Source of the DNA: Eledone cirrhosa
Taxonomy: Eukaryota
DNA length: 64,000 nt
Assembly (NCBI GenBank): GCA_964016885.1
Contig: OZ024751.1
Span: 32,178,001 to 32,242,000, forward strand
Direction: 5' to 3'
Shown here: positions 4,121-63,143 of the stretch, piece after piece
Layout: the number at the start of each line of letters is the position of its first letter
How positions within the stretch are numbered: position 1 is the stretch's first letter
Program-made: the position numbers and the translations under genes
Notes under the pieces: generated by a model
Told to the model about the DNA's origin: nothing
The model's database searches: none
What the model saw: only the letters and a program-made list of their open reading frames with translations

Positions 4121-4177
4121 TATATATATACATATACATGTATATATATATACATACATACATATATACATATATAC

Positions 4178-4312
<135 letters not shown>

Positions 4313-4379
4313 TATTGAAATTTCAGTTAGAAACAGAAAATATATATATATATATATATAGTAATATATATATATATAG

Positions 4380-4971: not shown

Positions 4972-5039
<68 letters not shown>

Positions 5040-5078
5040 CACACACACTTGCATATATATATATATATATATATACTT

Positions 5079-5152
<74 letters not shown>

Positions 5153-5878
5153 ACAGATACATATTCACGGGTATAATCCTACAATCAACTTCATCAAGTA
5201 AACCATACCGCACTAACGTGTTTAGTAAAACAACAACGAACTGCTTCTGTTAATGGTATGGTGACGACGGACAACTTCATGCCACAAGCGTAGTATTACG
5301 TAGTTTCTGTATTACTCTACAGTGACTACAACCCAATCAGGTAATTGATATTACACTCTATCAGTACAACCATTAGGAACAACGACCGATCTACACTCCC
5401 CCAAAAATCTGACACTGAATACAGACATACGCTCAAGTATACCGCACGCTCAAGCAACAGAACACGATCTGACCTAATCAATACCATTTATCATATCAAT
5501 ATCATTTATTAATCTCATCCAAATTCTACTTGCTTAACGAACCAATAAAAAGGAACGATGCGAAGTTACTGATTAAGTAATTAAATAACTAAATAAATAC
5601 AACGAGAAAAGACCACATATTGAGTCTGAACCACGTCCACATACTGTCCAACGGAGGCTACAGCATGCTACTAACACACACATATACCCATGATACCCCC
5701 CCCCCCCCCAACCAATTAAATATATGTATGTTATATATCATAACAAAATTTGATAGGACAGTATCTCTCTCTCACTCTCTCTTTCTTTCTCTCTCTGTCT
5801 CTTTCTATCTGTATATATATATATATATATATATATACTTTATTGACATACTTTATTGTATATATATATATATATATA

Positions 5879-7150: not shown

Positions 7151-7235
7151 ATGTATGTATGTATGTATGTATGTATGTATGTATGTATGTATGTATGTAT
7201 GTATGTATGTATGTATGTATGTATGTATGTACATC

Positions 7236-7646
7236 CGGGAGAGATGACCCCCTTAGCCTTTGTCAAGGCAGAATTCTAGGAAAAGGAAAACTCTGATATA
7301 ACACCTGCAACCCTGATGGTATCCAATGATGTTGACTTGTTCTTCTTTTTGGTAAATATCATCTTGGTTAAGAGAGTGGGACTGGCTTTGTGCAGTGCCT
7401 TTGCTCACTATAAAAGCTTCACGGCACAGGCATTGCTTTATATCTGGAGATCTCTCTGCACTTGTCATCACATGGTACCATGGGCCCAGCACTATGTGTC
7501 AATAATTGTCACAAGTGTAGTGTTTGTACCAGAGTTTTCAAGTCGCTGGCTGGACTAAAAAGTCACACTCGTTCAGCGCATCGGTAGGGGTTCTCCTACA
7601 TGGATATAAAGTAGTGGCCGTACTCGAAAACGAGTTGGCAGCCACC
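7236..7646 (+). mobile_element. ~410-bp non-autonomous retroposon (SINE-like) in (ATGT)n
   Basis: Near-identical to 10212-10619. Both sides are (ATGT)n. The motif TCTAGGA(A/G)AAGGAAAACTCTGA resembles RTE-clade 5'-UTR sequence (from memory). Confidence 0.7.
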
Positions 7647-7843
7647 ATGTATGTATGTATGTATGTATGTATGTATGTATGTATGTATGTATGTATGTAT
7701 GTATGTATGTATGTATGTATGTATGTATGTATGTATGTATGTATGAGTGTGTACATATCTGTGGATGTATGTGTGTGTGTGTAAATATCTGTGCATGTAT
7801 GTGTGTGTATGTATGTATGCGCGTGTGTATGTATGTATGCATT

Positions 7844-7877
<34 letters not shown>

Positions 7878-8136
7878 TGTATGTATGTATGTATGTATGT
7901 ATGTATGTATGTATGTATGTATAAATGTGTATGTGTGTATACATATATATGTTAACAGTTTCAACACCCTTCACTATGCTGTGTCCTCCAACCACTACTT
8001 ATAACCCTTTACTTTGTTTTCTTTCCTCCGCACCACTGTCCCCTTTTTATGACATATCCTGCAATTCATTTAACGGAAACCAAACACGTAAGATTCCATG
8101 AGAGGAAAAAAAATGAATTTATGGGAGGGTGAATGA

Positions 8137-9230: not shown

Positions 9231-10211
9231 ATCTTGTTTTATATAAATATATATATATATAATGTTCTTGTTATTGTTGTAGGTGTGGTGATGTAGTTGA
9301 TGCTGTAGTTTTTTTTTCAATGCTATTCCAGTCGTGATCATTCCGTGTTTTTCCTATATTGCAAAGAATCCAAGGTAATTCTACCCATTATGTTTTTTTG
9401 ATATGAGAGGGATGTGGCTGCTATTTCTTACAGATATAGAACGATGTAGAGGTTCTTTCGTTTGTCATAGCTGCACATACAGTGTAGCCTCACGTATGTA
9501 ATATATGGGTTGTAAAACTTCAATCAACTCAAATTATTGAAGCAATTACTAACTCCAAACTCCATCTAGTGGTGCTTAAAATCTAAAAACACAAAGGAAG
9601 AAAGATGACTCCAATAATATCAGTATTAAACAATTCAGATTGGAGTAGATGTGATCTTTAAAGGCAGCTGCTTTTGTAGATTTCTTTCTAAGAAAGAAAG
9701 TTCCCCCATTGCAACACTGTCAGCAACAACTGCACACAACTAATTGCTATCAAATCAACGACGGAACCACTACGTGATCACCCGATTTGCTAGAAATAAC
9801 AACAAAAATAACATACGTATGTATCCATGCCTTGCGACAAAATTCCGGAACATCTAAATATTTCTGAGACACATACTTCATCAGCTGGAGTAGGAATGGA
9901 CAGGCTCCCGTGAAGTCTTGCTACGAGGGGTTGTATATAACGTGACCGGAACAAAAAAGGAAACACAGGGTACAACAAACATAAACGCCCTGTTTTACTG
10001 AAGTAGTAAAAATATGTTCAGAAAGTTGCATATGTCAATAGGGACATGTTTCTTAAAATAGAGACTTCCCAACTAAATAAAGTGACATTTTTGTATATGC
10101 ATGGATTTAATGAAGTTGTGTACAAGTGTGTGTATGTATGTATGTATGTATGTATGTATGTATGTATGTATGTATGTATGTATGTATGTATGTATGTATG
10201 TATGTATGTAT

Positions 10212-10619
10212 GGGAGAGATGACCCCTTAGCCTTTGTCAAGCAGAATTCTAGGAGAAGGAAAACTCTGATATAACACCTGCAACCCTGATGGTATCCAAC
10301 GATGTTGACTTGTTCTTCTTTTTGGTAAATATCATCTTGGTTAAGAGAGTGGGACTGGCTTTGTGCAGTGCCTTTGCTCACTATAAAAGCTTCACGGCAC
10401 AGGCATTGCTTTACATCTGGAGATCTCTCTGCACTTGTCATCACATGGTACCATGGGCCCAGCACTATGTGTCAGTAATTGTCACAAGTGTAGTGTTTGT
10501 ACCAGAGTTTTCAAGTCGCTAGCTGGATTAAAAAGTCACACTCGTTCAGCGCATCGGTAGGGGTTCTCCTACATGGATATAAAGTAGTGGCCGTACTCGA
10601 AAACGAGTTGGCAGCCACC
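10212..10619 (+). mobile_element. Second copy of the ~410-bp (ATGT)n-associated retroposon
   Basis: Only a few substitutions relative to 7236-7646. Flanked by (TATG)n. Confidence 0.7.
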
Positions 10620-10746
10620 ATGTATGTATGTATGCAAGCATGAATGTATGCATTTTTGTATGTTAGTGCATATATATGTATACACACACACACACACATA
10701 TATATATAAATATGTGTGTGTATTTATATGTGTGTATATGTTTATA

Positions 10747-10851
<105 letters not shown>

Positions 10852-11029
10852 TATTGTTGGTGCATGCATGTGAGTGTGTGTGTGTGTGTGTGTGTGTTAA
10901 GCCAATGTGACCAGATGTTAAAAAGATGCCAGACTGACTCCAATAACGTTGATAGATTACCTCGTTAAATGATGCAGACGGATTCTTCAGACCAGTACAC
11001 TTAATATCCCTTACCAACACCACCGTCAC

Positions 11030-32391: not shown

Positions 32392-32581
32392 AATTGTTCC
32401 TACTTTTGGCACAAGGCCAGCAATTACCTAGTACATTACTGGTACTTTATTTTATCCACCCCGTAAGGATGAAAGGCAAAGTTAACCCCGGCGGGATTTG
32501 AACTCAGATCGTAAAGGGACGTAACTCTTTGCGTCAAAGCATGGCGTCCGACCCTCTACTGATACTGCCAATCCACCGCCC
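32392..32581 (-). mobile_element. Full-length tRNA-derived SINE
   Basis: Reverse complement of the 19521-19707 family with a (TAA)n tail. Confidence 0.85.
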
Positions 32582-32598
32582 TAATAATAATAATAATG

Positions 32599-34040
32599 AT
32601 TTCCTTTATTGGCCACAAGGGCCGACATATAGGGGCAATACAAAAGACTGGGACAGTGAGGTTTTACAGAAAAATCGAGTATACAATATGAATAACAATA
32701 ACAAAGTAACAAGAAAAATGCAACAAGAAAAATTCCCCATGCGGTTTGTCCAAGCCCACATTGGCACATTCGGGAAATCCAGACGGTACCTGTCAGGCAG
32801 TTGAAACCGTCTGAGCAGGTTTGTGAGGCTTTTACACCCTCCTCCCCTATCCGCTAATCCCACACAGTCCCAGCGTGCATCTAAGATCCCGTTCCAGTCG
32901 CCCACTAACACTAAAGAGCGGGACGTTCCAAGAAAGGTCTCCAGACGCCGAAAGAAATCAGGCCGCCCTGCTCCTGTCAGGGCATAGACGGCCACTAGCC
33001 AGAAAGCTTTCCTGTCTCCGCCGGTCACGTCCAGCACCACCAACTTACCTTCTGGGTCAAGGAAGATACCCCGTATGGCGAGATCCAAACCTCTCCGAAA
33101 AAGCACAGAAACTCCTCCCCCCGACCCAGGACGGCTGGGAGATGCGTACACATCGTAGCCGCCGAAGATCGGTGCGAAGGCTCGTGCTTCGGTGATTCTG
33201 GTCTCGCTGATGGCCACCACATCTATGTTTAGTGACCTGAAGCAGGTGGCCTTGCTTCTATGACGATCCCAGGCCACGCGCATTTATGCTGCCTATTCTG
33301 AGTGAGGTCATGTTGAAAAGGAGTAGAAAAAGATGGGAAAGACCACCTACCTTACTTCTCGTAGAGGAAGGATGGTTTCTCCATCCTTCTCACAGCTTGT
33401 GGCCTCCTCCGGAAGGATGTCCGTATAAATCCTCCCGGAGAGTGTTTGTCGGAAGTCTCCGATGTCCTTGGGGAATTTTTGTTTTAGTGTCGTGTACGTT
33501 TTCTGTGTGATGCGAGTGATTTGTATGTGTGGAGGTGGTGTGAATTTTGGGGGTGTTGTGTAGTCTTTTTCTGTGACGCTGGTGTTGTGTTGGATGTAGT
33601 GTAATAATTGGTTGTTGTTCAAATTTAATGCTGTGTAGTGTGTATCGTTTTGGTTGTTTTGTTTTGTTTGCGTTTGTTGTGGGTTTGTTTCTATTTCGCT
33701 TTTTGGTGATTTTTGTGGTGTTGGTGATGGTGGATGTGGGGTTAATGATGTTGATGGTGTTGGTGTTTGTGATGATGGGGCTGGTGATGCTGGTGTGGGT
33801 GGTGGCATAGCTGTTTTAACTTTTTTGTTTGTTTGCTTATTTGTTTCCCCCTGCATTTTGTTTTTGGAGAGCGAAGGAAGAGGATTTTTTTCTTTTTTGG
33901 GTTCTTTTTTTCTTTTTCTTTTTTCCTGATACCATTTCCCACTCCTCCTCATCGTCACAATCTGTCTCCAGTAGGGTTGCAAGGTAAATGCGTCCGTAGG
34001 CGGTATGCAGGTGGAGCACTCGATGCTCGCGCAGAGCAGT
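32599..34040 (-). mobile_element. Internally deleted Tx1-type retrotransposon (ORF1 remnant + AP endonuclease + 3' UTR)
   Basis: ORF1-like EWEMVSGKKKKK and Pro-rich segment, then the ORF2 start, then an abrupt join at ~32730 to a 3' UTR ending gcccttgtggccAATAAAggaaat(c)(att)n. Confidence 0.75.
32731..33311 (-). pseudogene. AP-endonuclease domain of Tx1/L1-type ORF2 (one stop, one frameshift)
   Basis: MTSLRIGSINARGL...DVVAISET...GGGVSVL...AVYA...VGDWN...DRYR...WAWTN: canonical APE motifs. Confidence 0.9.
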
Positions 34041-35246: not shown

Positions 35247-35424
35247 GTTTCTACTTTTGGCACAAGGCCAGCAATTATCCCAATGTATTACTGGTACTTT
35301 ATTTTATCAACCCCGTAAGGATGAAAGGCAGAGTTAACCTCGGCGGGATTTGAACTCAGTCCGTAAAGGGACGTAACTCTTTGCTGCAAAGCATGGCGTC
35401 CGACCCTCTACCGATACTGCCAAT
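35243..35424 (-). mobile_element. Near full-length tRNA-derived SINE
   Basis: Same family as 19521-19707. Confidence 0.85.
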
Positions 35425-35524
35425 ATATCATATGGGATAGACATCATATAAATAGCTAGAGAGGCAGGTAGATAGGTTTATTATTAAGTAGATAGATAAA
35501 CAGACAGACAAACAAATAGATAGA

Positions 35525-35724
35525 TATGTTTCTTTATTAGCCACTGGAGCACAAAAGAAGGGGACAAATACAAAGGGGGAAGTTTACATACAATAAAAAC
35601 GTGTAAAATATTATCACAAATGTAATTTAAAAGTTAATCGATTTTCCCCAATAGAGGGAGACATTTCATATGGGTAACACATACCCCCGAAAAAAATGTG
35701 CAACCCTCATCTCCAGGAGTACGA
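35525..35724 (-). mobile_element. Tx1 3'-UTR-only insertion in GATA/GACA repeats
   Basis: Reverse complement of the 3' UTR at 42254-42450, flanked by gatagata/gatagaca. Confidence 0.9.
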
Positions 35725-38250: not shown

Positions 38251-39019
38251 AATAATAATAATAATAAAAGTACAAAAAAAAAAACGACAAACACACAAAT
38301 CAAAATGTAATTGTTGATATAGAAAAATAACGAAATGGTCACGCAGGGAATGATCATAGATGTGTTTAATCAAGTCTGACCTAGGGTTAAACAACAGCCT
38401 TATTTAACGAAGTTCTAAAATAATCTTTTACTTCCGGTTGAAACTAATACTTCCTACATTAATCCATTCATCCATTTTACGCATCTCTCTCCCATTTAAT
38501 TATATTAGATTACACCCTTCCTTCTCTTCCTCCTCTCCCTGCTCCTCTCATTTATATCCCCCCTCTCTCTCAGTCTATCTCTCTTTCTCCGTCTATCTGT
38601 ATTTTACGTGACTACATGACAGTTTTCAAATGGCTGAACGCATGTATGTATGTATGTATGTATGTATGTATGTATGTATGTATGTATGTATGTATGTATG
38701 TATGTATGTATGTATGTATGTCTGTCTGTCTGTCTGTATGTATGTATGTACGTACGTATGTATGTATATATATATATATGTGTGGTTGTAGGTATGTATA
38801 TACATGTATATGTGTGAGTACATATTTCTACATATACAATACCTTCTCATTGATTCTATGTCTCTCACATACATACATATATACATACATACATAAATAC
38901 ACACATTCATATAAGTGCACATGCATACATACATAAATACACACACACACACACATATATACATACATACTTACATACATACGTACCTACATACATACAC
39001 ATGCATGCATACATACATA

Positions 39020-39475
39020 TCTACCTAGTTGATGTTGTGTAAATTCCAATGAGAGAGTCTTGTGTCTATGTTAGAAACCGACTCTCTCTCTATTGGTAAA
39101 ACTTTGTGAAATTATAAAACCAGTAGAACATACATACATACATACATACATAAATACACACACACATACATACATAGTTAGGAAACTACAAGTACAATCC
39201 ATTAATGGAACAGTAAAAATATGTAAAACATTCCAAAAATTTTGCATCTAATAACTGCATATACACATGTACAGATACAAAGCATATACACATGCACACA
39301 TACAACTCAAAATATACACATCCACACATACAATAACATCCATATCTACACATGCATGCATACATACATATCTAGCTAGTTGATGTGTAAATTCCAATGA
39401 GAGAGTTTTGTGTCTATGTTAGAAACCGACTCTCTCTCTATTGGTAAAACTTTGTGAAATTTTAAAACCAAAAAA
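39020..39475. repeat. X-Y-X partial tandem of the 2665-2978 repeat within (CATA)n
   Basis: The ~105-bp X segment occurs at 39020-39130 and 39375-39475, flanking Y. Confidence 0.75.
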
Positions 39476-40559
39476 ACATGCATGAATACACACATACATA
39501 CATACATACATACATACATACATACATACATACATACATACATACATACATACATACATACACACATACATATATACATACATAAATACACACACGCATA
39601 CATACATAAATACACACACACATACATACATACATACATACATACATACATACATACATACATACATACATACATACATACATACATACATACATACATA
39701 ATACATACATACATACATACATACATACATACATACGTACATACATACGTACCTACGTACGTACAGAGATTGGGTGTATTAGAGGAAGAGAGTCAGACAG
39801 AGATAAAGAGAGAAATACACAAATGCATCGTTGTGTAAACACATACACACAGTTTCGTCGGACTATATACCCGATCAGATCAAATAGAAACTGTACAACC
39901 ACAATGTTACCCAACATTCCATATCTTGTAATTGTATAAACCCGAGTGAATATTCGATGTAGCCCGAGTGAATGAACGAAGATGCCTAACTAAAGATATG
40001 ATTTCACCATTATTTACTAGTTTACGGTGAATAATATTGTTTGGAAATCATACATTGGATTGATATCAAATACCGCTGTGTGGAAAACCTACATTAGGTT
40101 CACATCAAATACTAGAGTTTGGAAATCATATATTGGAAGGAAGACGCAGTAGAGGAAGACCACAAAAAATACCAGTGTTTGGAAACCATACATTGGGTTG
40201 ATGTCAAACTCGTTCAAAACTCAATAGTCCCATTCTTCTCATTCATTTTGAGGAACCAATGACACAAATATAATATTAATCTGGAATTAATTGATACAGC
40301 CAAACTGTATAATCATTTCAGCCGACCATTGTATGTTATGTGCTTCCGAAGGATATTAAATACTGATCCTCTCTTGAAGAAGCATTCAGTTTTGATTTCA
40401 AGGTGTTTGCTGGTACAAATCACCCAATAAACATACAGAAAAAGAACAGTATTGGAAAGGACTATAAATACCATAAATGAGAGAAAAAGGAAGAACAAGG
40501 ACTACTAGACAAAGGAAGAAAGAAAGAGAGGAAGAAGGGAGGGTGACAGACTCTACACA

Positions 40560-40810
40560 TATGTCAGAGCGATATTTCGGCTGCACCCCGCACACAAAAT
40601 CGCAAAGGCATTTCCGCGGACAATAGCCAGCGACACACGCTGCAACATCCAACCCACCTCGTGGGGGTTCCTTCCTTAGACGGATTGCTATCGATCCGAT
40701 TTTACGGAGGAGTACAGCTGTCCGAGATTCGAGGACCCCTGAGGTCTCGACGGCGACCAGTGCAAAGAAGAAGCGACCCAACAAGCTTCGGTATTTGCTT
40801 GTCAAACACT
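40560..40810 (-). mobile_element. 3' fragment of a CRE-clade (RLE) non-LTR retrotransposon
   Basis: KYRSL...VAVETSGVL...LLRKIG and, after a frameshift, HEVGWMLQRVSLAIVRGNAFAIL. This matches the CRE-type RLE C-terminus (AVET.G...QR.S.AI.RGNA). Confidence 0.75.
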
Positions 40811-41524
40811 CAATTTTTTCAAACCTTGTGTCAGATAATCTTATGAACTAATAATGGCATGAGTGACTGTTGATTCTATAAATTCCGTACAGAAAAGATA
40901 AAGTTCTAACTTTAATACTATTCGCCTGATAATTATCTTGTGTACTAAATAAGCTGAGTTTATCTCTACTGATTTTCTCCTATATCATTGTCGTGTTGTC
41001 GGGTTTATTTACATTTTACGTATAATTCTACATTTGGGATTTCTTGTCAATTTTCTTTAGTTATTTTGATATAACTTTCCTCTTACTTTAATGCGGAAAG
41101 AACTATAATATACTACAAGGAGAATTTATATTTTAATAGTTTTTAAATAAAACTATTTATGTTCCGAAGAACAATTTTATAGATATGTTTTTTCTGTTAG
41201 AAAACATCTGGGGAGGCGTGATAAATACGATATCATCGTCACCATCAAAACCACAAAACGAAATATTGGAAATTTAAGGATTAAGGAAGTTATTCCCATT
41301 ACTAAAATAAATCCCTATATCAAACATGAGATTGCGCAATACTAATAGGATAAATATAACATTACTAATCTGCGCATGTCAAAATCACCACCCAACACTA
41401 CATTTTTGGAGAGATCAAAGCTAATATTAGGGTTCATTTCTTTCTCTTAATAACGGCATTTAATAGCCGAAATGTTGAAATATAAGATAAAAGTACAAAC
41501 TGTTATGTTTGTTTGTGATTTTAT

Positions 41525-41603
<79 letters not shown>
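41525..41603. repeat. (TATC)n microsatellite, left flank of the Tx1 array
   Basis: Pure tetranucleotide run. Confidence 0.95.
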
Positions 41604-41604
<1 letters not shown>

Positions 41605-42450
41605 CGACGCGCTCGGTGAAACTCTAGGCGTGGAGGAAGATGAACTGGCCAGTCTGTTCGGTAGGACCTTCCGCCCGGGACCGATGGACAACTTCCAAAA
41701 GTCCCTGGCCTGGCAGTGCTACCGAGGAGCTCTACCAGTTCGAGACAAGCTCTACAGACATGGGCGCCCGGGCAGGGACCATGCAAAAAAGATCTGTCCG
41801 AGGTGCGTGCGAGACGAAGAAACCGTCGCGCATGCATTCATACACTGCCCGGGCGTCACTGACCTGTGGGGCTATGTAGAACGACTATTGTCGCGGGTGG
41901 GACCAATCCAGTTGACCACCGAGTCCATTGTCATGATCAAACCGCCACCCTCCTTCAAAAACGAAGGAGAGGCGGTTTTCCTTTGTGTGATAGCTATGGC
42001 GAAAGAGGTTGTATGGTGGACAAGGTTGAAAGGGCTGAGGTCAGACACCTTTCTCTCCGGCCAACAACTGATTCTTTTTTTCAAATACCACTTTGGAAGA
42101 AGAATCAGGATGGAGAGAGAGGTGCTGTACCCCAGCAAGTTTTATGAAAGGTGGGTTAAAGTGGCGAGAATGGCCCGAGTGAATGGGCCTTCTCTCTATA
42201 TCAGCCTGTAGGTTGAGGAAAAGGAGGAGGAGAGGAAAGGAGTACAAGCTCTTCGTACTCCTGGAGATGAGGGTTGCACATTTTTTTTCGGGGGTATGTG
42301 TTACCCATATAAACTGTCTCCCTCTATTGGGGAAAATCGACTAACTTTTAAATTCCATCTGTGATAACATTTTACACGTTTTTATTGTATGTAAACTTCC
42401 CCCTTTGTATTTGTCCCCTTCTTTTGTGCCCCTGTGGCTAATAAAGAAAT
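41604..42450 (+). mobile_element. Tx1-type retrotransposon, 5'-truncated 847-bp unit A1
   Basis: ORF2 C-terminus with zinc motif CPRC...ETVAHAFIHC, plus a 3' UTR ending AATAAAGAAAT. Confidence 0.92.
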
Positions 42451-42451
42451 A

Positions 42452-42520
<69 letters not shown>

Positions 42521-42521
<1 letters not shown>

Positions 42522-43367
42522 CGACGCGCTCGGTGAAACTCTAGGCGTGGAGGAAGATGAACTGGCCAGTCTGTTCGGTAGGACCTTCCGCCCGGGACCG
42601 ATGGACAACTTCCAAAAGTCCCTGGCCTGGCAGTGCTACCGAGGAGCTCTACCAGTTCGAGACAAGCTCTACAGACATGGGCGCCCGGGCAGGGACCCTG
42701 CAAAAAAGATCTGTCCGAGGTGCGTGCGAGACGAAGAAACCGTCGCGCATGCATTCATACACTGCCCGGGCGTCACTGACCTGTGGGGCTATGTAGAACG
42801 ACTATTGTCGCGGGTGGGACCAATCCAGTTGACCACCGAGTCCATTGTCATGATCAAACCGCCACCCTCCTTCAAAAACGAAGGAGAGGCGGTTTTCCTT
42901 TGTGTGATAGCTATGGCGAAAGAGGTTGTATGGTGGACAAGGTTGAAAGGGCTGAGGTCAGACACCTTTCTCTCCGGCCAACAACTGATTCTTTTTTTCA
43001 AATACCACTTTGGAAGAAGAATCAGGATGGAGAGAGAGGTGCTGTACCCCAGCAAGTTTTATGAAAGGTGGGTTAAAGTGGCGAGAATGGCCCGAGTGAA
43101 TGGGCCTTCTCTCTATATCAGCCTGTAGGTTGAGGAAAAGGAGGAGGAGAGGAAAGGAGTACAAGCTCTTCGTACTCCTGGAGATGAGGGTTGCACATTT
43201 TTTTTCGGGGGTATGTGTTACCCATATAAACTGTCTCCCTCTATTGGGGAAAATCGACTAACTTTTAAATTCCATCTGTGATAACATTTTACACGTTTTT
43301 ATTGTATGTAAACTTCCCCCTTTGTATTTGTCCCCTTCTTTTGTGCCCCTGTGGCTAATAAAGAAAT
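42521..43367 (+). mobile_element. Tx1 unit A2
   Basis: Same endpoints as A1, with one visible substitution (RDH to RDP). Confidence 0.92.
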
Positions 43368-43368
43368 A

Positions 43369-43433
<65 letters not shown>

Positions 43434-43434
<1 letters not shown>

Positions 43435-44280
43435 CGACGCGCTCGGTGAAACTCTAGGCGTGGAGGAAGATGAACTGGCCAGTCTGTTCGGTAGGACCTT
43501 CCGCCCGGGACCGATGGACAACTTCCAAAAGTCCCTGGCCTGGCAGTGCTACCGAGGAGCTCTACCAGTTCGAGACAAGCTCTACAGACATGGGCGCCCG
43601 GGCAGGGACCCTGCAAAAAAGATCTGTCCGAGGTGCGTGCGAGACGAAGAAACCGTCGCGCATGCATTCATACACTGCCCGGGCGTCACTGACCTGTGGG
43701 GCTATGTAGAACGACTATTGTCGCGGGTGGGACCAATCCAGTTGACCACCGAGTCCATTGTCATGATCAAACCGCCACCCTCCTTCAAAAACGAAGGAGA
43801 GGCGGTTTTCCTTTGTGTGATAGCTATGGCGAAAGAGGTTGTATGGTGGACAAGGTTGAAAGGGCTGAGGTCAGACACCTTTCTCTCCGGCCAACAACTG
43901 ATTCTTTTTTTCAAATACCACTTTGGAAGAAGAATCAGGATGGAGAGAGAGGTGCTGTACCCCAGCAAGTTTTATGAAAGGTGGGTTAAAGTGGCGAGAA
44001 TGGCCCGAGTGAATGGGCCTTCTCTCTATATCAGCCTGTAGGTTGAGGAAAAGGAGGAGGAGAGGAAAGGAGTACAAGCTCTTCGTACTCCTGGAGATGA
44101 GGGTTGCACATTTTTTTTCGGGGGTATGTGTTACCCATATAAACTGTCTCCCTCTATTGGGGAAAATCGACTAACTTTTAAATTCCATCTGTGATAACAT
44201 TTTACACGTTTTTATTGTATGTAAACTTCCCCCTTTGTATTTGTCCCCTTCTTTTGTGCCCCTGTGGCTAATAAAGAAAT
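43434..44280 (+). mobile_element. Tx1 unit A3
   Basis: Appears identical to A2. Confidence 0.92.
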
Positions 44281-44281
44281 A

Positions 44282-44334
<53 letters not shown>

Positions 44335-44335
<1 letters not shown>

Positions 44336-47300
44336 CTAGGTCGTACCTAGATAGGTTCTTAGTTAGAATTAAGGATAAGGACTTTTTAAGTTGTCCAAAA
44401 ATGCGCATTGTTGGCTATTCAGACCACAAATTAGTGACCTGCATGGTCAACCTTGACAGAACTCATAGACAGGGCCCCGGTTACTGGAAGCTCAACTTGT
44501 CCTTGCCGGCAAGTAGAGCCTACAGGAATCGGATTAGTACGTTAGTTAAGGAACGGTTGACTGGAGCGATCGTCAACAGCAGGTGGTGGGTATCTCTAAA
44601 GAGAGAGATTAGAGTAGTCTCGATAGAATTTAGTAAGGTTCTAGCTGCGGATAGGAATAGGAAGGAAAGGGAGCTAATAGATAGAGTAGAAGAGGCAATT
44701 AGAAGCGGCGACGTGGCCAGAGTGCTAGCGTCGAGAACGGCTTTGAGCCAGTTTTTCGACGCGAAGCACGAAGGCTGCGTTGTCCGAAGTAAAATACGTG
44801 CTCTAGGGAACGAGGGGACCAAAGCTGTTAGCTGGGCCCGCGTGACAGAGGCCAACAGTGGAACTAAATCCACCATCCGGTCTTTGCGAGACCTGGATGG
44901 ACGGGCGATTCTTGAGCCTAAGCAGATGTGTGAGGCCTTTCAAAGGCACTTTGCCCGACTGTTCGGGAGGGGCGGGGAGCCGGTTGGGAACGTGGACTTC
45001 GGTCCATACCTCGACGGCCTGCCGCGCCTCTCGGACAGGGAGGCGAAGTCCTGCGAGGAGCCGATTTCGGCCGCTGAGATAGAGGACGTGCTGAGCCAAT
45101 GCGGCAAACGCAAATCCCCGGGTCTCGATGGTCTTCCTTACGAATTATATCTAGCTATGCCGGACTTGTTCCCCGATCTCCTCGAGGCGGTCTACTGCAA
45201 CTGGCAACAGAACGGGAGAATTCCCTGTACTGTGACCAAGGGCGTAGTCACGCTAGTGAGGAAGGACGAGAACAAGGGGGACGAAATAAGTAACTTCAGG
45301 CCCATAACACTGCTAAATACAGAGTTACAGATTTTGGCCAAGGTGCTAGCAAAGAGGTTGGCGCTTGTCGTGGGCAACCTGGTGGGAGATGCGCAGACAT
45401 GCGCTATCCCGTCCAGGTCCATCCATGACAACCTCCACCTCATGCGATACATCATAGAGAGGGTTGGGAACGAACCCGGCTTTGGTGGGGCTCTGATCAA
45501 CTTGGATCAATCTAAGGCGTTCGATAGGGTCGACCATGGTTACCTGGATGCGGTGCTAGCGGCGGCAGGCTTCGGACCCGTTTTCAGGGGCTGGATCACT
45601 GCTATGCACAGCAGCCGCATCTGCTCTAGGGTCAAGGTGAACGGCTACCTCTCGGAGCCGTTCAAAATCGCGCGGTCCATCCGACAAGGGTGCCCTCTCT
45701 CCTCCCTTCTGTATGTATTGACTCTCGAGCCACTACTGCGGAAGTTGGAGTTGTTGCAGGGCATCCCTTTGGAACCGGGATTGCGGAAAGCGGTGTCGGC
45801 CTACGCCGATGACGTGACAGTAATGGTGTCGACGGCCTCCGAAATCGAGGCGGTCGGCACCTTACTGGAGGAGTACGAAAAGTTCACAGGGGCTAAGCTG
45901 AACCGGGACAAGTCGATCGGTTTGCAACTCGGCACGTGGAGGGGCAGACCGATGCCCTCCGATAGCGTCGTCGGACGCTGGACGGAGGGCCCGGTGAAGT
46001 TGCTCGGGGTCTGGTTCGGACCGGACCTCCAGGTGGAGAAAAACTGGGCGGAGGTTACGAACAGAGTGTTTGCACTGACCCAGAAGTGGGCCAGTTGCAA
46101 ACTATCCCTGAAAGGTCGGGCGGAGGTGGCGAACACCTACATAGCGTCCGTCATCTACTACCGCCTGACCGTAGTGCCCTGCCCAAGGGAAACCCTCACC
46201 AAGATGGAGCGCGCGCTCTTCCAATTCCTTTGGAAGAGGCGGGCTCCTATGGTGAGGAGATCCATCTGCTGTCAACACCCTTCGAAAGGAGGGCTGGGGA
46301 TGCCGTGGCTAATGATGCGTAAACACGCATTAAGGCTACGGCACCTCTACGTATTCCTCACCGGACAACCGGTGTGGGCCTCGTTTGTGAGACGAACCTT
46401 TCCCAGACTCGTCTCACTCACCGAGCTGCAATCCTGGGTCAAGCAAAGACCGAGAAAACTGGGCGCCTGGCACACTGAGTGTGCCCAGGCGCTCACCGCC
46501 CTCTGGCAGGCGGATCCGGTTATCAGTGGAGACTCCACCGCAACATTCTATAGAGGGCTGGTACGCAGCAGGTGCGACGACGCCCTCGGAGAAGCCCTAG
46601 ACATGGAGGAGGACGAACTGTCCAGCCTTTTCGGTAGGACATTCAGCCCGGGACCTATGGACAACTTCCAGAAGTCCCTGGCCTGGCAGTGCTACCGAGG
46701 GGCTTTACCCGTTCGAGAAAGGCTCTACAGACACGGGCGCCCGGGTAGGGACCCCGCCAAAAAGATCTGTCCCAGATGCGTGTGCGACGAGGAAACCGTT
46801 GCACACGCATTAGTACACTGCTCGGGCGTAGCCGATCTGTGGGGCTATGTCGAACAACTGCTGTCAAGGGTGGGACCGATCCGGTTGACCACCGAGTCTA
46901 TTGTAATGATCAAGCCGCCTCCCCCCTTCAAAGATGAAGCAGAGGCGGTGTTTCTGTGCGTAATAGCCATGGCGAAAGAGGTTGTATGGTGGACGCGTCT
47001 GAAAGGACTGAGGTCGGGCACCTTTCTCTCTGGCCAACAACTGGTCCGTTTCTTCCGATATCATTTCGGAAGAAGGATCAGGATGGAGAGAGAGGTGCTG
47101 CACCCCAGCCGTTTCTATGAAAGATGGGTGAAAGTGGCGAGAATGGCCCGTGTGAATGGGCCTTCACTCTACATCAGACTATAGGTGAGGAAGATGAAAG
47201 ACCAAGGGAGCACCCCTTCTCTGTGCTCCTGAGGAGAAGGGTTGCACACTTTTTTCGGGGGTGTGTGCGACCCCCCAAGGCGCCTCCTCTCTATTGAGGA

Positions 47301-47447
47301 TTTTGTTAAAAATTTTATTTTTTGTTATATCTTATTTTATTTTTATATTTTGTTATTGCCTCCTCCTTATTGAGGACGCCTTTTTGTGTAAACTCCCCCC
47401 TTTGTACTTGTCCCACTTTTGATGCCCTAGTGGCAAATAAAAGAAAT
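44335..47447 (+). mobile_element. Tx1-type retrotransposon subfamily B, 3.1 kb, truncated within the endonuclease
   Basis: Begins SRSYLDRFLV...SDH, the end of the APE domain. It has a distinct 3' UTR and (TATC)n on both sides. Confidence 0.93.
44401..47184 (+). CDS. Tx1/L1-type ORF2 reverse transcriptase (N-terminally truncated, uninterrupted)
   Basis: GPGYWKLN, KSPGLDGLP, FRPITLLN, LDQSKAFDRVDH, QGCPLS, AYADDV, GGLG and the C-terminal CPRC...H...C zinc motif. Confidence 0.93.
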   Translation: MRIVGYSDHKLVTCMVNLDRTHRQGPGYWKLNLSLPASRAYRNRISTLVKERLTGAIVNSRWWVSLKREIRVVSIEFSKVLAADRNRKERELIDRVEEAIRSGDVARVLASRTALSQFFDAKHEGCVVRSKIRALGNEGTKAVSWARVTEANSGTKSTIRSLRDLDGRAILEPKQMCEAFQRHFARLFGRGGEPVGNVDFGPYLDGLPRLSDREAKSCEEPISAAEIEDVLSQCGKRKSPGLDGLPYELYLAMPDLFPDLLEAVYCNWQQNGRIPCTVTKGVVTLVRKDENKGDEISNFRPITLLNTELQILAKVLAKRLALVVGNLVGDAQTCAIPSRSIHDNLHLMRYIIERVGNEPGFGGALINLDQSKAFDRVDHGYLDAVLAAAGFGPVFRGWITAMHSSRICSRVKVNGYLSEPFKIARSIRQGCPLSSLLYVLTLEPLLRKLELLQGIPLEPGLRKAVSAYADDVTVMVSTASEIEAVGTLLEEYEKFTGAKLNRDKSIGLQLGTWRGRPMPSDSVVGRWTEGPVKLLGVWFGPDLQVEKNWAEVTNRVFALTQKWASCKLSLKGRAEVANTYIASVIYYRLTVVPCPRETLTKMERALFQFLWKRRAPMVRRSICCQHPSKGGLGMPWLMMRKHALRLRHLYVFLTGQPVWASFVRRTFPRLVSLTELQSWVKQRPRKLGAWHTECAQALTALWQADPVISGDSTATFYRGLVRSRCDDALGEALDMEEDELSSLFGRTFSPGPMDNFQKSLAWQCYRGALPVRERLYRHGRPGRDPAKKICPRCVCDEETVAHALVHCSGVADLWGYVEQLLSRVGPIRLTTESIVMIKPPPPFKDEAEAVFLCVIAMAKEVVWWTRLKGLRSGTFLSGQQLVRFFRYHFGRRIRMEREVLHPSRFYERWVKVARMARVNGPSLYIRL

Positions 47448-47461
47448 ATATCTATCTATCT

Positions 47462-48308
47462 ACGACGCGCTCGGTGAAACTCTAGGCGTGGAGGAAGATG
47501 AACTGGCCAGTCTGTTCGGTAGGACCTTCCGCCCGGGACCGATGGACAACTTCCAAAAGTCCCTGGCCTGGCAGTGCTACCGAGGAGCTCTACCAGTTCG
47601 AGACAAGCTCTACAGACATGGGCGCCCGGGCAGGGACCCTGCAAAAAAGATCTGTCCGAGGTGCGTGCGAGACGAAGAAACCGTCGCGCATGCATTCATA
47701 CACTGCCCGGGCGTCACTGACCTGTGGGGCTATGTAGAACGACTATTGTCGCGGGTGGGACCAATCCAGTTGACCACCGAGTCCATTGTCATGATCAAAC
47801 CGCCACCCTCCTTCAAAAACGAAGGAGAGGCGGTTTTCCTTTGTGTGATAGCTATGGCGAAAGAGGTTGTATGGTGGACAAGGTTGAAAGGGCTGAGGTC
47901 AGACACCTTTCTCTCCGGCCAACAACTGATTCTTTTTTTCAAATACCACTTTGGAAGAAGAATCAGGATGGAGAGAGAGGTGCTGTACCCCAGCAAGTTT
48001 TATGAAAGGTGGGTTAAAGTGGCGAGAATGGCCCGAGTGAATGGGCCTTCTCTCTATATCAGCCTGTAGGTTGAGGAAAAGGAGGAGGAGAGGAAAGGAG
48101 TACAAGCTCTTCGTACTCCTGGAGATGAGGGTTGCACATTTTTTTTCGGGGGTATGTGTTACCCATATAAACTGTCTCCCTCTATTGGGGAAAATCGACT
48201 AACTTTTAAATTCCATCTGTGATAACATTTTACACGTTTTTATTGTATGTAAACTTCCCCCTTTGTATTTGTCCCCTTCTTTTGTGCCCCTGTGGCTAAT
48301 AAAGAAAC
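47462..48308 (+). mobile_element. Tx1 unit A4
   Basis: Same 5' truncation point as A1-A3. Ends AATAAAGAAAC. Confidence 0.92.
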
Positions 48309-48309
48309 A

Positions 48310-48369
<60 letters not shown>

Positions 48370-48421
48370 CATCTATCTATATATCTATCTATCTATCCAT
48401 CTATCTATATATCTATCTATA

Positions 48422-50943
48422 TCTTGAGCCTAAGCAGATGTGCGAGGCTTTTCAAAAGCACTTTGCCAGATTGTTCGGAAGTGGCGGGGAGCCGGTTGCG
48501 GAAGCGGACTTCGGTCCATACCTCGACGGCCTGCCGCGTCTCTCGGACAGGGAGGCGAAGTCCTGCGAGGAGCCGATTTCAGCCGCTGAAATAGAGGACG
48601 TGCTGAGCCAATGCGGCAAACGCAAATCCCCGGGTCTCGATGGTCTTCCATACGAACTATATCTAGCTATGCCGGACTTATTCCCCGATCTCCTCGAGGC
48701 GGTCTACTGCAACTGGCAACAGAACGGGAGAATTCCCTGTGCTGTGACCAAGGGCGTAGTCACGCTAGTGAGGAAGGACGAGAACAAGGGGGACGATATA
48801 AATAATTTCAGGCCCATAACTCTGCTAAATACAGAGTTACAGATTTTGTCCAAGGTGCTAGCAAAGAGGTTGGCGCTTGTCGTGGGCAACCTGGTGGGAG
48901 ATGCGCAGACATGTGCTATCCCGTCCAGGTCCATCCACGACAACCTTCACCTCATGCGATACATCATAGAGAGGGTTGGCAACGAACCCGGCTTTGGTGG
49001 GGCCCTGATCAACTTGGATCAATCTAAGGCGTTCGATAGGGTCGACCATGGTTACCTGGATGCGGTGCTAGCGGCGGCAGGCTTCGGACCCGTCTTCAGG
49101 GGCTGGATCAATGCCATGCACAGCAGCCGCATCTGCTCTAGGGTCAAGGTGAACGGCTACCTCTCGGAGCCGTTCGAAATCACGCGGTCCATCCGTCAAT
49201 GGTGCCCTCTCTCCTCCCTTCTGTATGTAATGACACTAGAGCCACTGCTGCGGAAGTTGGAGTTGTTGCAGGGCATCCCGTTGGAACCAGGATTGCGGAA
49301 AGCGGTGTCGGCCTACGCCGATGACGTAACAGTAATGGTGTCGACGGCCTCGAAAATCGGGGCGATCGGCACCTTACTGGAGGAGTACGAAAGGTTTACA
49401 GGGGCTAAGCTGAACCGGGACAAGTCGATCGGTCTGCAACTCGGCACGTGGAGGGGCAGATCGATGCCATCCGATGGCGTCGTCGAGCGCTGGACGGAGG
49501 GCCCGGTGAAGCTGCTCGGGGTCTGGTTAGGACCAGACCTCCAGGTGGAGAAGAACTAGGGTGAGGTAACGAACAGGGTGTTTGCACTGACCCAGAAGTG
49601 GGCCGAGTGCAAACTGTCCCTGAAAGGTAGGGCGGAGGTGGCGAACACTTATATAGCGTCCGTCATCTACTACCGCCTGACCGTTGTGCCTTGCCCAAGG
49701 GAAACTCTTGCCAAAATGGAGCGCGCACTCTTCCAATTCCTTTGGAAGAAGCGGGCTTCTATGGTGAGGAGATCCATCTGCTGTCAATACCCTTCCAAAG
49801 GATGGCTGGGGATGCCGTGGCTAATGATACGTAAACACGCATTAAGGCTACGGCACCTCCAGGTAATCCTCACCGGTCAACCGGTGTGGGCCCTGTTTGT
49901 GAGGCGAGCCTTTCCCAGACTCGTCTCACTCACCAAGCTGCAATCCTGGGTCAAGCAAAGACCGAGAAAACTGGGCGCCTGGCACACTGAGTGTGCCAGG
50001 CAGGTGGACCCGGCTGTCAGTGGAGAATCCACCTCGTCATTCTATAGAGGGCTGGTGGTTAGCAGGTGCGACGACGCCCTCGGAGAAGCCCTAGGCATGG
50101 AGGAAGACGAACTGGCCAACCTGTTCAGTAGGACATTCAGCCCGGGACCCATGGATAACTTCCAGAGGTCTCTGGCCTGGCAGTGCTACCGAGGGGCTCT
50201 GCCCGTTCGAGAAAGGCTCTACAGACACGGGCGCCCGGGTAGGGATCTCTCGAAAAAGATCTGTCCCAGATGCGTGTGCGACGAGGAAACCGTTTCACAC
50301 GCATTGGTACACTTCTCGGGCATTGTCGATCTGTGGGGCTCTGTCGAACAACTGCTGTCAATGGTGGGACCGATCCGGTTGACCACCGAGTCTATTGTAA
50401 CGATCAAGCCGCCTCCCCTCTTCAAAAACGAAGGAGAGGCGGTGTTTCTGTGGGTAATAGTCATGGCGAAAGAGGTTGTATGGCGGACGCGTCTGAAAGG
50501 ACTGAGGTCAGACACCTTTTTCTCTGGCCAACAACTGGTCCGTTACTTCCAATATCATTTCGGAAGAAGGATCAGGATGGAGAGAGAGGTGCTGCACCCC
50601 AGCCGTTTTTATGAAAGATGGGTGAAAGTGGCGAGAATGGCCCGTGTGAATGGGCCTTCACTCTACATCAGACTATAGGTGAGGAAGATGAAAGATCAAG
50701 GGAGCACCCCTCTCTGTGTTCCTGAGGAGAAGGGTTGCACACTTTTTTTCGGGGGTGTGTGCGACCCCCCAAGGCGCCTCCCCCCTATTGAGGATTTTGT
50801 TATTAAATTTATTTTTGTTATATCTTATTTTATTTTTATATCTTGTTATTGCCTCCTCCTTATTGAGGACGCCTTTTTATGTAAACTCCCTCCATTGTAC
50901 TTGTCCCACTCTTTGATGCCCTGGTGGCAAATAAAAAGAAAGT
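48422..50943 (+). mobile_element. Tx1 subfamily B-like copy C, 2.5 kb, defective
   Basis: Colinear with B. It has a TGG>TAG stop at 49557-49559, QGCPLS changed to QWCPLS and a short in-frame deletion. Flanked by TATC repeats. Confidence 0.92.
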
Positions 50944-51031
50944 TATCTATATATATCTATCTATCCGATTTTATTAACTATTATTTATAGTGATCAACTA
51001 TTATAATGGTCACTTGCGTTGTGATGCAAAC

Positions 51032-51112
<81 letters not shown>

Positions 51113-51202
51113 GTGTGTGTGTATGTTTATAGATGTATATATCTATATATATATAAACACTACATACACAAAAAAGTGTAGTATAAAACAATACTACACT
51201 CT

Positions 51203-51258
<56 letters not shown>

Positions 51259-51296
51259 ATTTATATATATATGTATATATATATATACACATATAT

Positions 51297-51585
51297 ATAT
51301 ATATAAGATCAAAAGATGGTTAAAAGAGTTCCATGTATTTTATTATGCGCATTTCAAAAACAAATATCATCATGCAATAATATTTGTGTTTTCCTATTTT
51401 ATCTGATGAAAACACAAATATTATTTGATGATATTTGTTTTTGAAATGCGCATAATAAAATACATCGAACTCTTTTAACCATCTTTTGATCTTATATATT
51501 ATGTATACTCCAGTCCTACAAACTGTAGAGTGCTTCTTATCCGATATCTGCATTGCTTTATTGTACTACAATAAAACTCACCTCC

Positions 51586-51588
<3 letters not shown>
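51297..51588 (+). mobile_element. PLE pseudo-LTR fold-back (~95-bp arms) plus tail in (TA)n
   Basis: Arms at about 51297-51393 and 51408-51499. Confidence 0.8.
51395..51462 (+). ncRNA. Type I hammerhead ribozyme
   Basis: tattttat-CTGATGA-aaac-acaaatatt...gatatttgt-tttt-GAA-ATGCGCAT-A-ataaaata. 8-bp stem I, long stem II, palindromic stem III. Confidence 0.8.
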
Positions 51589-51665
<77 letters not shown>

Positions 51666-53037: not shown

Positions 53038-53343
53038 TTATGAAAGGTGGGTGAAAGTGGCGAGAATGGCCCGAGTGAATGGGCCTTCTCTCTATATCAG
53101 CCTGTAGGTTGAGGAAAAGGAGGAGGAGAGGAAAGGAGTACAAACTCTTCGTACTCCTGGAGATGAGGGTTGCACATTTTTTCGGGGGTATGTGTTACCC
53201 ATATAAACTGTCTCCCCCTATTGGGAAAAATCGACTAATTTTTTAAATTGCATTTGTGATAACATTTTACACGTTTTTATTGTATGTAAACTCCCCCTTT
53301 GTATTTGTCCCCTTCTTTTGTGCCCCTGTGGCTAATAAAGAAA

Positions 53344-53345
<2 letters not shown>
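53038..53345 (+). mobile_element. Tx1 subfamily A 3' fragment
   Basis: YERWVKVARMARVNGPSLYISL plus 3' UTR. TATC repeats upstream and (CT)n(CTAT)n downstream. Confidence 0.9.
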
Positions 53346-56002: not shown

Positions 56003-56138
56003 ATGTTTCTTTATTAGCCACAGGGGCTCAAAAGAAGGGGATAAATACAAAGGGGGAAGTTTACATACAATAAAAACGTGTAAAATATCACAAATGCAAT
56101 TTAAAAAATTAGTCGATTTTCCCCAATAGGGGGAGACA
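56003..56138 (-). mobile_element. Tx1 subfamily A 3'-UTR fragment in GATA/GA repeats
   Basis: Reverse complement of the last ~135 nt of the 3' UTR, with (GATA)n adjacent. Confidence 0.88.
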
Positions 56139-56229
56139 GATAGATAGATAGATAGAGATGGAGAGAGAGAGAGGGTGGGGGGGGGGGGATGGAAAATAAA
56201 TTTAAGTAGATATATAGGTTTTAGATAGA

Positions 56230-56289: not shown

Positions 56290-57945
56290 TATAATTAGTA
56301 ATAAAATGTATCATACCTAAACTGCTTCTAGATTCCTCGACTACGTAGTTTCGTGGCATAAACAAAAACAATATATCATAAAGACATAGAGTCCTTGCGA
56401 GGTCTGCCGACTTATCAAGAGGATACCTCATTTTACTAGTCTCAAGAACGCGTCTACACGACGTGAGAAAGAATCCCAAAAGGCGGAGGGGGAGATAGTC
56501 ACACGATATAACGGTCGAGAAACAGAGCTAAGCCTCTTATAACCCCGAAGAAAATACCACGGAGGCGGAGGGGGTATTCATATCGAGGCCGTAGAAGAGG
56601 TGGTGAAGGAGGCGAGAAGTATGAGTAATGGAAGCTTTCCAGCTGTCCCCACACTTCAAAGATTGCTCGACCAGAGGGAGTTATTAACAATATATTTAGA
56701 AACACACAGATACATGCGGACACAACTCGCAATATAAGTTACACTGGGAGATCCTAGCTAGGGCTAGATCGTATAACGGAAATAAAAGACCATGTGACCT
56801 CTGCGCCGCTGAGGCCCTGGAAATACTCTACACCACAGACCACATCTTAATAAAAAAAATCTGAGGCAATTTCGGCTTGTAAACATAAATTGCACAAAAC
56901 TTTCCTGTATTACAGCCCCACGTTATACCCTAACGGATAGTACGATCTATACGTGGATATGTTACGTCTTGATGTGGGAGCTAAGTATATGTTTTGTTTA
57001 TTCCTTTACTTATTTGCATAGGTAAGTATATATTACCCGTATGTTTTGTGAAGGTACGTAATCCTTCTCGTACGTATATTTGATTGTTTATGTTATGGCG
57101 TATAATTTTATATATTCTGGTACATATGGTTTGGCTATGTGTATACGGGAGTTTTGCGTCTGTGTGAGTATGCAGGTTCGTACGTATGTAAGGTGTGTGT
57201 ATATGTGTACTTCATGTTTTGGTTGACTTACGTCTTCGTACATTCGTGTATTTACATGTAGGTATGTGTGTGCGCTTGTTATATACGTATTTATTTATTT
57301 ATATACGTTTATATAATTATTTATTTATTTGTATACACGCATACACACACACACATATTTATATGTGCGTGGTTTTGTATACCTATGGTAAGGTTTTGCG
57401 TATGCTTGTGTATGTACGTATTTGTTTGCGTATATGTATTTATTTATTTCTATTACTTCTGTATTGTATTTATTTACTTTGTTCTTAACTCTGTAGCGGA
57501 GATTCATTTGGTCTCCTAGTTAGAATTTTAGTCTACGACTTCTGCTATAGCATTTACGTGGTTTTGTCTTTGCGTGCTATTGTTCTCCACGCTCCACATA
57601 TGACGTATTATCTTCGTTTTTCCGTTCATTGCCACAGAACGTCTCTATGAACCACCTAAGAGAACATTAGTCTACGACCTCTTTTATACCATAAACGTGG
57701 TTCTGTCTTTGCGCGTAATTGTTTTTCACCGCTCCTATTAATGACGTATTATTCGTTTTTTCCCGTTCTTTGCCAGCGAACGTTACCACGAACCAAAGTA
57801 TCGTCTTCCTGTCTTCCTCCGGTTGCAACGTTTTTTGAAATATCCAGTTCTGCGTTGACAGATTGACTTTGTTAGTTTCAGAAGATCCCATTAAGGGTGA
57901 AAGCAGCTATTCTTTGCTTAAAATTTAATCTGTTATTTTAATAAA
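56290..57945 (+). mobile_element. 5'-truncated Penelope-like element (Naiad-like): decayed GIY-YIG, T-rich 3' region, ~139-bp internal duplication, terminal hammerhead-like motif
   Basis: Manual translation of 56690-56890 gives YI*K...WEILARARSYNGNKRPCDLCAAEALEILY...(frameshift)SEAISACKHK. The 3' end is the same as the 4.4-5.0-kb family. The 5' boundary is approximate. Confidence 0.75.
57874..57924 (+). ncRNA. Hammerhead-like motif with CAGAAGA core
   Basis: agttt-CAGAAGA-t-ccc-attaa-ggg-t-GAA-AGCA...TGCT-T-aaaat. Confidence 0.55.
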
Positions 57946-57978
57946 TATATATATATATATAAATATATATAAATATAT

Positions 57979-58015
<37 letters not shown>

Positions 58016-58028
58016 AATATATATAAAT

Positions 58029-58095
<67 letters not shown>

Positions 58096-58096
58096 A

Positions 58097-58173
<77 letters not shown>

Positions 58174-62748: not shown

Positions 62749-62970
62749 GAAGAGAGGAAAGGGGTACAAACTCGTCGTACTCCTGGAGATGAGGGTTGCA
62801 CATTTTTTCGGGGATATGTGTTACCCATATGTAATGTCTCCCCCTATTGGGGAAAATCGATTAACTTTTCAATTGCATTTGTGATCATATTTTACACGTT
62901 TTTATTGTATGTAAACTTCCCCCTTTGTATTTGTCCCCTTCTTTTGTGCCCCCGTGGCTAATAAAGAAAC
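62749..62970 (+). mobile_element. Tx1 subfamily A 3'-UTR insertion in (CTAT)n
   Basis: Follows pure (CTAT)n at 62694-62748 and ends AATAAAGAAACATATCTAT. Confidence 0.9.
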
Positions 62971-63143
62971 ATATCTATATATATATATATATCTACTATC
63001 TATCTATCTATCTGTCTTCCTCATAATCCCACACATCCTTTCTTTCTCTTTTCCCCCACCTCGACCCTCTGTATTACCTCTCCCTTCCCTCTCTATGTTT
63101 CTCTCTTTTCTCCCAGAAAGAGAGACCGCCAATATATTCTCCC

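Follow-up and report, generated by a model that had tools for sequence, protein, structure and literature searches.

A strong but leaky preference for (TATC)n microsatellites in an L1-group LINE of Eledone cirrhosa

The window analysed here is a stretch of 64,000 nucleotides (nt) of the Eledone cirrhosa genome (assembly GCA_964016885.1, contig OZ024751.1, positions 32,178,001 to 32,242,000), in which positions 41525..50965 hold a stack of truncated copies of a long interspersed nuclear element (LINE) lying in TATC repeats. Our analysis shows that for this element a pre-existing TATC repeat is the target of insertion and not a tail; the preference is strong but leaky, and falls short of strict specificity. 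The reading we favour is that this L1-group LINE inserts at a fixed register in (TATC)n, probably since the GATA strand is nicked by its endonuclease and reverse transcription is primed at that nick. Elements that seek out repeats are known; to their targets (TATC)n/(GATA)n adds one that is new, real and strong, though leaky.

Genome-wide counts were made with exact 3'-end patterns, which gave 5846 matches to subfamily A and 3429 to subfamily B. Two letters followed by TATC come after the 3' end in 5275 of the A and 2933 of the B matches. A preliminary description of this DNA had proposed that the flanks be tabulated; its statement that no copy sits in (TA)n holds within the window but not in the genome, where (TA)4 (TATATATA), counted with slightly shorter prefixes, follows the 3' end of 118 A (about 2%) and 224 B (6.5%) copies. 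Flanks were sampled from 95 of the A matches, 30 of the B matches and four chosen B clusters, which merged into 110 stretches. Directly past the element, the first four letters read TATC in 86 of 95 A copies and 34 of 38 B copies, and TCTC in another 4 A copies; at off-target sites the 3' flank still opens with TAT. Copies whose 3' flank is (TA)n carry no TATC tail. Among such B copies (TA)n also lies on the 5' side in all four that are readable, the 5' side of the other 16 of 20 being out of view; among eight such A copies the 5' side is mixed, with two TA and two TATC. The repeat at the 3' end therefore reflects the insertion site rather than a fixed tail. The terminal two letters are TA in 32 of 37 young A copies and CA in 27 of 38 older copies; since they track subfamily age, we assign them to the element. 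At one locus (L152) two young B copies lie within a mixed six-base repeat, in which TATC units are joined by TATG/TATA units, rather than in pure TATC.

The 5' junctions were assessed in copies that possess the 3' end, have a readable 5' junction and have no family copy within 300 nt upstream. This gave 91 rows, one of which was dropped as its flank was element sequence, leaving 80 truncated and ten full-length copies; a TATC-phase run of at least 10 nt within the last 30 nt of the flank was scored as positive. On this basis TATC precedes 38 of the 80 truncated and eight of the ten full-length copies, and the GATA orientation occurs in none of the 90. In the background, taken from twenty 10-kb stretches (13,320 windows), TATC was found in 16 windows (0.12%) and TA in 966. 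For truncated A copies the proportion is 26 of 41, rising to 19 of 24 for young copies and 12 of 13 for those of at least 98% identity. Immediately before full-length A and B copies, the same variant repeat ends turn up at unrelated loci, and this suggests that transcription begins within the repeat ahead of the element or takes that repeat along. Because TATC may in this way travel with the transcript, we do not use the eight full-length copies as independent evidence.

In support of insertion into an existing repeat, non-periodic flank matches of at least 12 nt, which mark target duplications, occur in 27 of 148 copies compared with five to 13 in each of 20 shuffles. Judged by eye, 12 of the 27 run into unrelated sequence, and 11 of these 12 are 14-21 nt long. 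The target duplications all begin directly after the two terminal letters, at TAT. At the 5' join the mean microhomology is 1.3 nt against an expected 0.6 nt (41 in-phase junctions; a rough comparison). Truncation points at distant loci match within 2 nt in 11 pairs, a local duplicate and a doubtful pair apart. Kojima has taken one sequence type in more than 20% of flanks as the mark of target preference (PMC4494074). Here TATC accounts for 86-90% of the flanks on the 3' side and for 30-63% on the 5' side, depending on subfamily.

Several observations weigh against the picture of a dedicated TATC element. All sampled flanks come from a single contig, within its first 100 Mb, and the choice of clusters inflates the cluster counts. 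Truncated B copies have 5' TATC in only seven of 23 cases, and upstream of 19 young truncated B copies we find five TATC (young A against young B, Fisher p 0.0007), four (TA)n, two short TATC runs and eight other sequences. The older truncated D, E and F copies are positive in five of 16 cases. At three resolved sites TATC is confined to the downstream, primer side of the nick, an arrangement for which RNA pairing by itself could be a sufficient explanation. The preliminary description had held that 5' flanks mostly without TATC would make the repeat no more than a tail. Such flanks are the minority in young A and, at face value, the majority in B, while truncated copies as a whole come close to an even division. 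It is these figures (19 of 24 in young A, seven of 23 in B, 38 of 80 overall) that lead us to speak of strong preference and not of strict specificity. The central proposal of that description, a pre-existing GATA repeat that is targeted with a strand bias and survives insertion, is upheld by the 5' flanks, the target duplications and the pile-ups across the 110 stretches.

Two other explanations of the repeat have to be considered. TATC could be a 3' tail made by the element, the 5' repeats then coming from neighbouring tails or later expansion. The absence of 5' TATC from 42 of the 80 truncated copies would suit this idea, as would the fact that in piles many 5' flanks are the 3' flank of another copy. 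Nevertheless, an unrecognised element-like end was found upstream of only one of the 38 TATC-positive truncated copies, so that 37 of the 80 have 5' TATC with no upstream element, to be set against the background of 0.12%. Together with target duplications that start at TATC, and with (TA)n copies that lack a TATC tail, this largely refutes the idea, and we consider it very improbable.

A more serious competitor is site choice by RNA pairing, in which a loose endonuclease nicks AT-rich DNA and only primers ending in GATA pair with a read-through UAUC transcript. In its favour, none of the 148 copies has poly(A), even though AATAAA is only six bases away from where the element stops. The three sites with TATC only downstream, the off-target sites that still begin with TAT, and a sister lineage that parallels the pattern with TTA, point the same way. 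Against it, at one resolved site the TATC repeats lie solely upstream of the junction, with TATAAAT on the other side; the four sites where units can be counted gained no additional TATC; and the tip of the endonuclease hairpin loop differs between the TATC and TTA lineages (a single change on the tree). Earlier work also credits target choice in this group mainly to the endonuclease (PMC4494074), and the Tx1L endonuclease in vitro nicks almost exclusively at its own target (PMC1950540). We therefore regard RNA pairing as the sole site chooser as rather unlikely, although the shares of nuclease and RNA in the specificity are not separable by sequence alone.

Nicking of the GATA strand by the endonuclease, the putative site chooser, is the reading that we prefer, and by analogy with L1-type target-primed reverse transcription it can be set out as follows. 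The first nick would fall near 5'-GATA^GA-3' on the GATA strand, with an uncertainty of about one base, and the second would be set by distance (14-21 nt) and not by sequence. The transcript probably runs into the TATC flank of the donor, as the lack of poly(A) behind AATAAA suggests, and could pair with the nicked primer, which would reinforce site choice. Duplication of the target would leave TATC on both sides, so that the site may be used again and head-to-tail piles can grow.

Repeated insertion at a regenerated site predicts pairs of mixed subfamily with TATC between them, and such pairs are common in the sample. A family copy on the same strand lies within 300 nt past the 3' end in 111 of 188 cases, and a copy on the opposite strand in none. 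Piles contain up to seven pieces, TATC is present in 102 of the 111 spacers, and 77 of the 111 neighbouring pairs join different subfamilies.

The stack in the window consists of six LINE pieces between 41604 and 50943, all on the same strand and all truncated at the 5' end; from left to right they are A, A, A, B1, A and B2 (starts at 41604, 42521, 43434, 44335, 47462 and 48422). Only TATC-type spacers separate them, of 71, 67, 55, 15 and 114 nt in order, as had been described. A (TATC)n tract at 41525..41603 (+) forms the 5' edge. Copy A1 (41604..42451, +) comprises the 846 nt 3' part of subfamily A, with the end of open reading frame (ORF) 2, the 3' untranslated region (UTR) and AATAAA, and a terminal TA; it carries one private base. 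Copies A2 (42521..43368, +) and A3 (43434..44281, +) are duplicates with the same 5' junction, and perfect TATC spacers occupy 42452..42520 (+), 43369..43433 (+) and 44282..44334 (+), the last being the 5' flank of B1. Copy B1 (44335..47448, +) is a young member of subfamily B truncated within the endonuclease, with a frame open to 47184 that encodes the reverse transcriptase (RT) and C-terminal zinc-binding region. It is followed by a short TATC spacer (47449..47461, +), by copy A4 (47462..48309, +), a further duplicate with the same 5' junction but a terminal CA in place of TA, and by a TATC spacer whose 3' half is degenerate (48310..48421, +). Copy B2 (48422..50943, +), an older subfamily B piece 93% identical to the B reference, has its frame broken by a stop near 49557, and a degenerate TATC tract at 50944..50965 (+) forms the 3' edge.

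Six copies are real, but they do not represent six insertions. The four A pieces are one 846-nt piece, the sole difference between their bodies being the single base in A1, and the 5' junction of this unit has exactly four matches in the 3.0-Gb assembly, all inside the window. They are therefore local duplicates. The same result led us to reject a reading of the 846-nt unit as a non-autonomous family dispersed through the genome. B1 and B2 are 92.9% alike with different truncation points, so that the stack represents about three insertions (A, B1 and B2). The A unit was then duplicated locally, with unequal crossover between TATC spacers, or slippage between them, as the likely cause. Neighbouring copies that share a 5' truncation in the manner of A1-A3 were seen at two other sampled loci (L292:7222-8012 and L073), the TTA and TATC lineages both being represented. 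The position of A4 behind B1 would fit either insertion of B1 into a four-unit run or a target duplication of 0.9 kb.

Two points count against this account of the array. The CA end of A4 (48308-48309), on a body the same as those of A1-A3 with their TA, needs one more change beyond simple duplication. In addition, comparison of window positions 40300-51600 with two contig sets and one restriction-site-associated DNA (RAD) read set gave no array-spanning piece and no empty allele. That A1-A2-A3 is one copy expanded in assembly, a possibility that concerns the array only and leaves the targeting unaffected, would agree with bodies identical except for one base and with an array left unbridged by public contigs and reads. 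We consider this improbable since the spacers are unequal (71, 67 and 55 nt), A1 has its private base, a fourth A copy lies beyond B1, and same-truncation tandem duplicates exist at the two further loci.

The element is an APE-type (apurinic/apyrimidinic endonuclease-type) retrotransposon without long terminal repeats (non-LTR) of the L1 group, with ORF1 followed by an ORF2 that encodes endonuclease, RT and a C-terminal zinc-binding region. Full-length copies, which lie outside the stack, are 5.7-5.9 kb, and in three of them ORF1 has 595-644 codons with a weak CCHC knuckle (E 0.051). One subfamily C copy retains both ORF1 and ORF2 unbroken, with the Pfam domains Exo_endo_phos, RVT_1 and zf-RVT and with the APE catalytic motifs present; another C copy matches it at 99.65% identity, a sign of recent activity. 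The open frame of B1 encodes the RT and zinc-binding region, and the nearest solved structure is human LINE-1 ORF2p; the sequence match had an E of about 1e-44 for L1 ORF2p and of about 1e-19 for R2. The endonuclease model of an intact full-length copy (pLDDT, the predicted local distance difference test, 93.9) has as its best fold match the L1 endonuclease, with Z 28.4 and a root-mean-square deviation of 2.4 over 227 aligned residues, followed at lower Z by cellular AP endonucleases (26.5), TRAS1 (24.1) and R1Bm (23.1). The variable 5' truncation, fixed 3' end and short target duplications that are traits of the L1 group are all found here. At one locus (L060) a subfamily A copy has an ORF1 segment inverted at the 5' junction, an arrangement like that of L1 twin priming.

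By sequence and by fold the closest solved relatives are human LINE-1 ORF2p and its endonuclease (PDB 1vyb, 2v0r and 8sxt). The octopod element shares with human LINE-1 two ORFs, 5' truncation and short target duplications, and the hairpin loop between its anchor residues appears to equal that of human LINE-1 in length (partly PMC1950540). It differs in having copies without poly(A), in its strong repeat preference and piling, and in an endonuclease of only about 20% identity. The sole named close homologue is an Argonauta hians protein, 67% identical across the RT region. Among atlas features the 'LINE-1 ORF2' and 'Transposon TX1 149 kDa' clusters are tied at 0.96. With no named Tx1 sequence among the homologues recovered, 'Tx1-type' is best taken as a label by resemblance. 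Relatives in metagenomes (34 loci, 24-48% identity) showed no microsatellite flank in the 12 inspected, several of which end before the 3' end.

Relatives about 70% identical in ORF2 came to light in the background stretches, and these form a sister lineage associated with (TTA)n. Its 3'-end patterns have more than 9,500 matches genome-wide (8161 for subfamily G and 1405 for H), and two letters then ATTATT occur at 6603 of 7554 G ends. Among 60 loci a TTA run follows 27 of 30 G ends and 21 of 30 H ends, and TATC follows none (TTA background 54 of 13,320). On the 5' side TTA precedes all 17 full-length copies. It precedes only four of the 11 truncated copies without an upstream neighbour (G four of seven, H none of four), which makes the case for a target and not a tail weaker in the TTA lineage. 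Many copies of this lineage have the same non-family sequence beyond the TTA tract (for example at L279, L280, L281, L282 and L287), so that the tracts often lie inside another dispersed repeat.

The eight TATC rows make up a single clade (support 98/97) in RT trees built without D058, P0016 and P0017, whose coverage was short (25 of 40 rows in the second tree). Subfamily H joins this clade, with support of 90/99 and, in the larger tree, of 100/99, although a single TTA clade is not rejected by the approximately unbiased test (p-AU 0.23). For that reason a switch in the direction TTA to TATC was considered but is not claimed. The endonucleases of the TATC and TTA groups are 58-65% identical. 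Residue five of the hairpin loop corresponds, by counting from the anchor residues, to the loop tip of the L1 endonuclease. TATC-flanked copies have Ser there in 24 of 25 cases, and all 21 TTA-flanked copies have Ile or Leu; 15 further rows carried no flank label or another one. The tip of the L1 loop probes the minor groove, and the shape and flexibility of the loop outweigh its sequence (PMC1950540). The Ser versus Ile/Leu difference is one change on the tree and one of 21 fixed differences, and we offer it as a lead only. It is possible, though we put it forward tentatively, that a radiation of octopod LINEs divided the microsatellites between (TATC)n and (TTA)n, and that the switch resides in a few endonuclease residues including the loop tip. 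If so, the two lineages would provide a natural pair of apparently intact enzymes, about 60% identical, for studying target change in APE-type elements.

This genome harbours two closely related lineages, each with thousands of young copies and each with a target of its own. Exchanging the endonucleases, and separately the RNA tails, between them could tell apart the parts played by nuclease recognition and by RNA pairing. Many of the genome's GATA and TTA tracts are insertion hot spots where piles of several kilobases gather, a point of relevance to octopod genome size and to GATA repeats as markers.

Waldo and Mino, which also target microsatellites, belong to the R1 clade; the endonuclease here ranks L1 over TRAS1 and R1Bm. 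Dong, which has a TAA/TTA target in common with the sister lineage, belongs to the R4 clade. The targets described are (ACAY)n for Waldo, (AC)n for Mino and (TAA)n for Dong (PMC3812793), the last labelled Dong-R4 elsewhere (PMC13282606), and (TG)n for Togen (PMC4640811). Within the Tx1 clade Kibi and Koshi of teleosts target (TC)n and (TTC)n, and crocodilian elements target (TTCC)n/(TTTC)n (PMC4494074; PMC3812793). Like these, the present element is an APE-type non-LTR retrotransposon with one microsatellite class, and it is set apart by the described targets, here (TATC)n with (TTA)n in the sister. It resembles Xenopus Tx1L in being of APE type; sequence specificity in vitro is on record for the endonuclease of Tx1L (PMC1950540), whose target is the transposon Tx1D (PMC4494074) and whose hairpin loop has eleven residues against the nine counted here. 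How LINEs target microsatellites is, according to a review, not well understood (PMC3812793). Octopus vulgaris has 80 consensus families of L1-Tx1, 13 of them recently active (PMC13282606), and these probably include relatives of the TATC and TTA lineages; the main text of that paper contains none of the words 'target', 'GATA' and 'TATC'. We found no LINE targeting GATA/TATC in the available parts of the literature, including PMC13282606, PMC10294476, PMC4758252, PMC8869645 and PMC3747384, and a Repbase or Dfam record may exist.

Elsewhere in the window four solo 3' fragments of subfamily A have different truncation points and, like the stack, lie on the TATC strand without exception, as previously noted. 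The piece at 56006..56139 (-) has TATC at both junctions and that at 62749..62971 (+) has (TATC)13 at its 5' junction. The earlier view that all four have clear TATC on both sides needs qualification: the piece at 53038..53345 (+) has a TATC-like 5' flank and about 50 nt of (TC)n between its 3' end and (TATC)n, and that at 35529..35724 (-) has degenerate TATC on either side, including its 5' flank at 35.7 kb. Each of the seven perfect AGAT-class runs of at least 20 nt that the window contains is no more than 60 nt away from the end of a copy, and other runs are, as had been stated, commoner (68 AT, 18 AC and 13 ACAT). When AGAT-class runs of at least three perfect units are considered, 13 of 18 are near a copy and five are not.

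A copy of the sister (TTA)n lineage, internally deleted and followed by a TTA tract, occupies 32600..33972 (-). A short dispersed repeat, possibly a short interspersed nuclear element (SINE), lies beside TTA tracts and element ends at window positions 32520-32580 (-) and 35380-35430 (-) and at L204 and L295. Dispersed repeat pairs of 83-92% identity are found at 4167-5163 and 57522-58173, at 7152-7938 and 10127-10887, and at 2628-2977 and 38916-39512.

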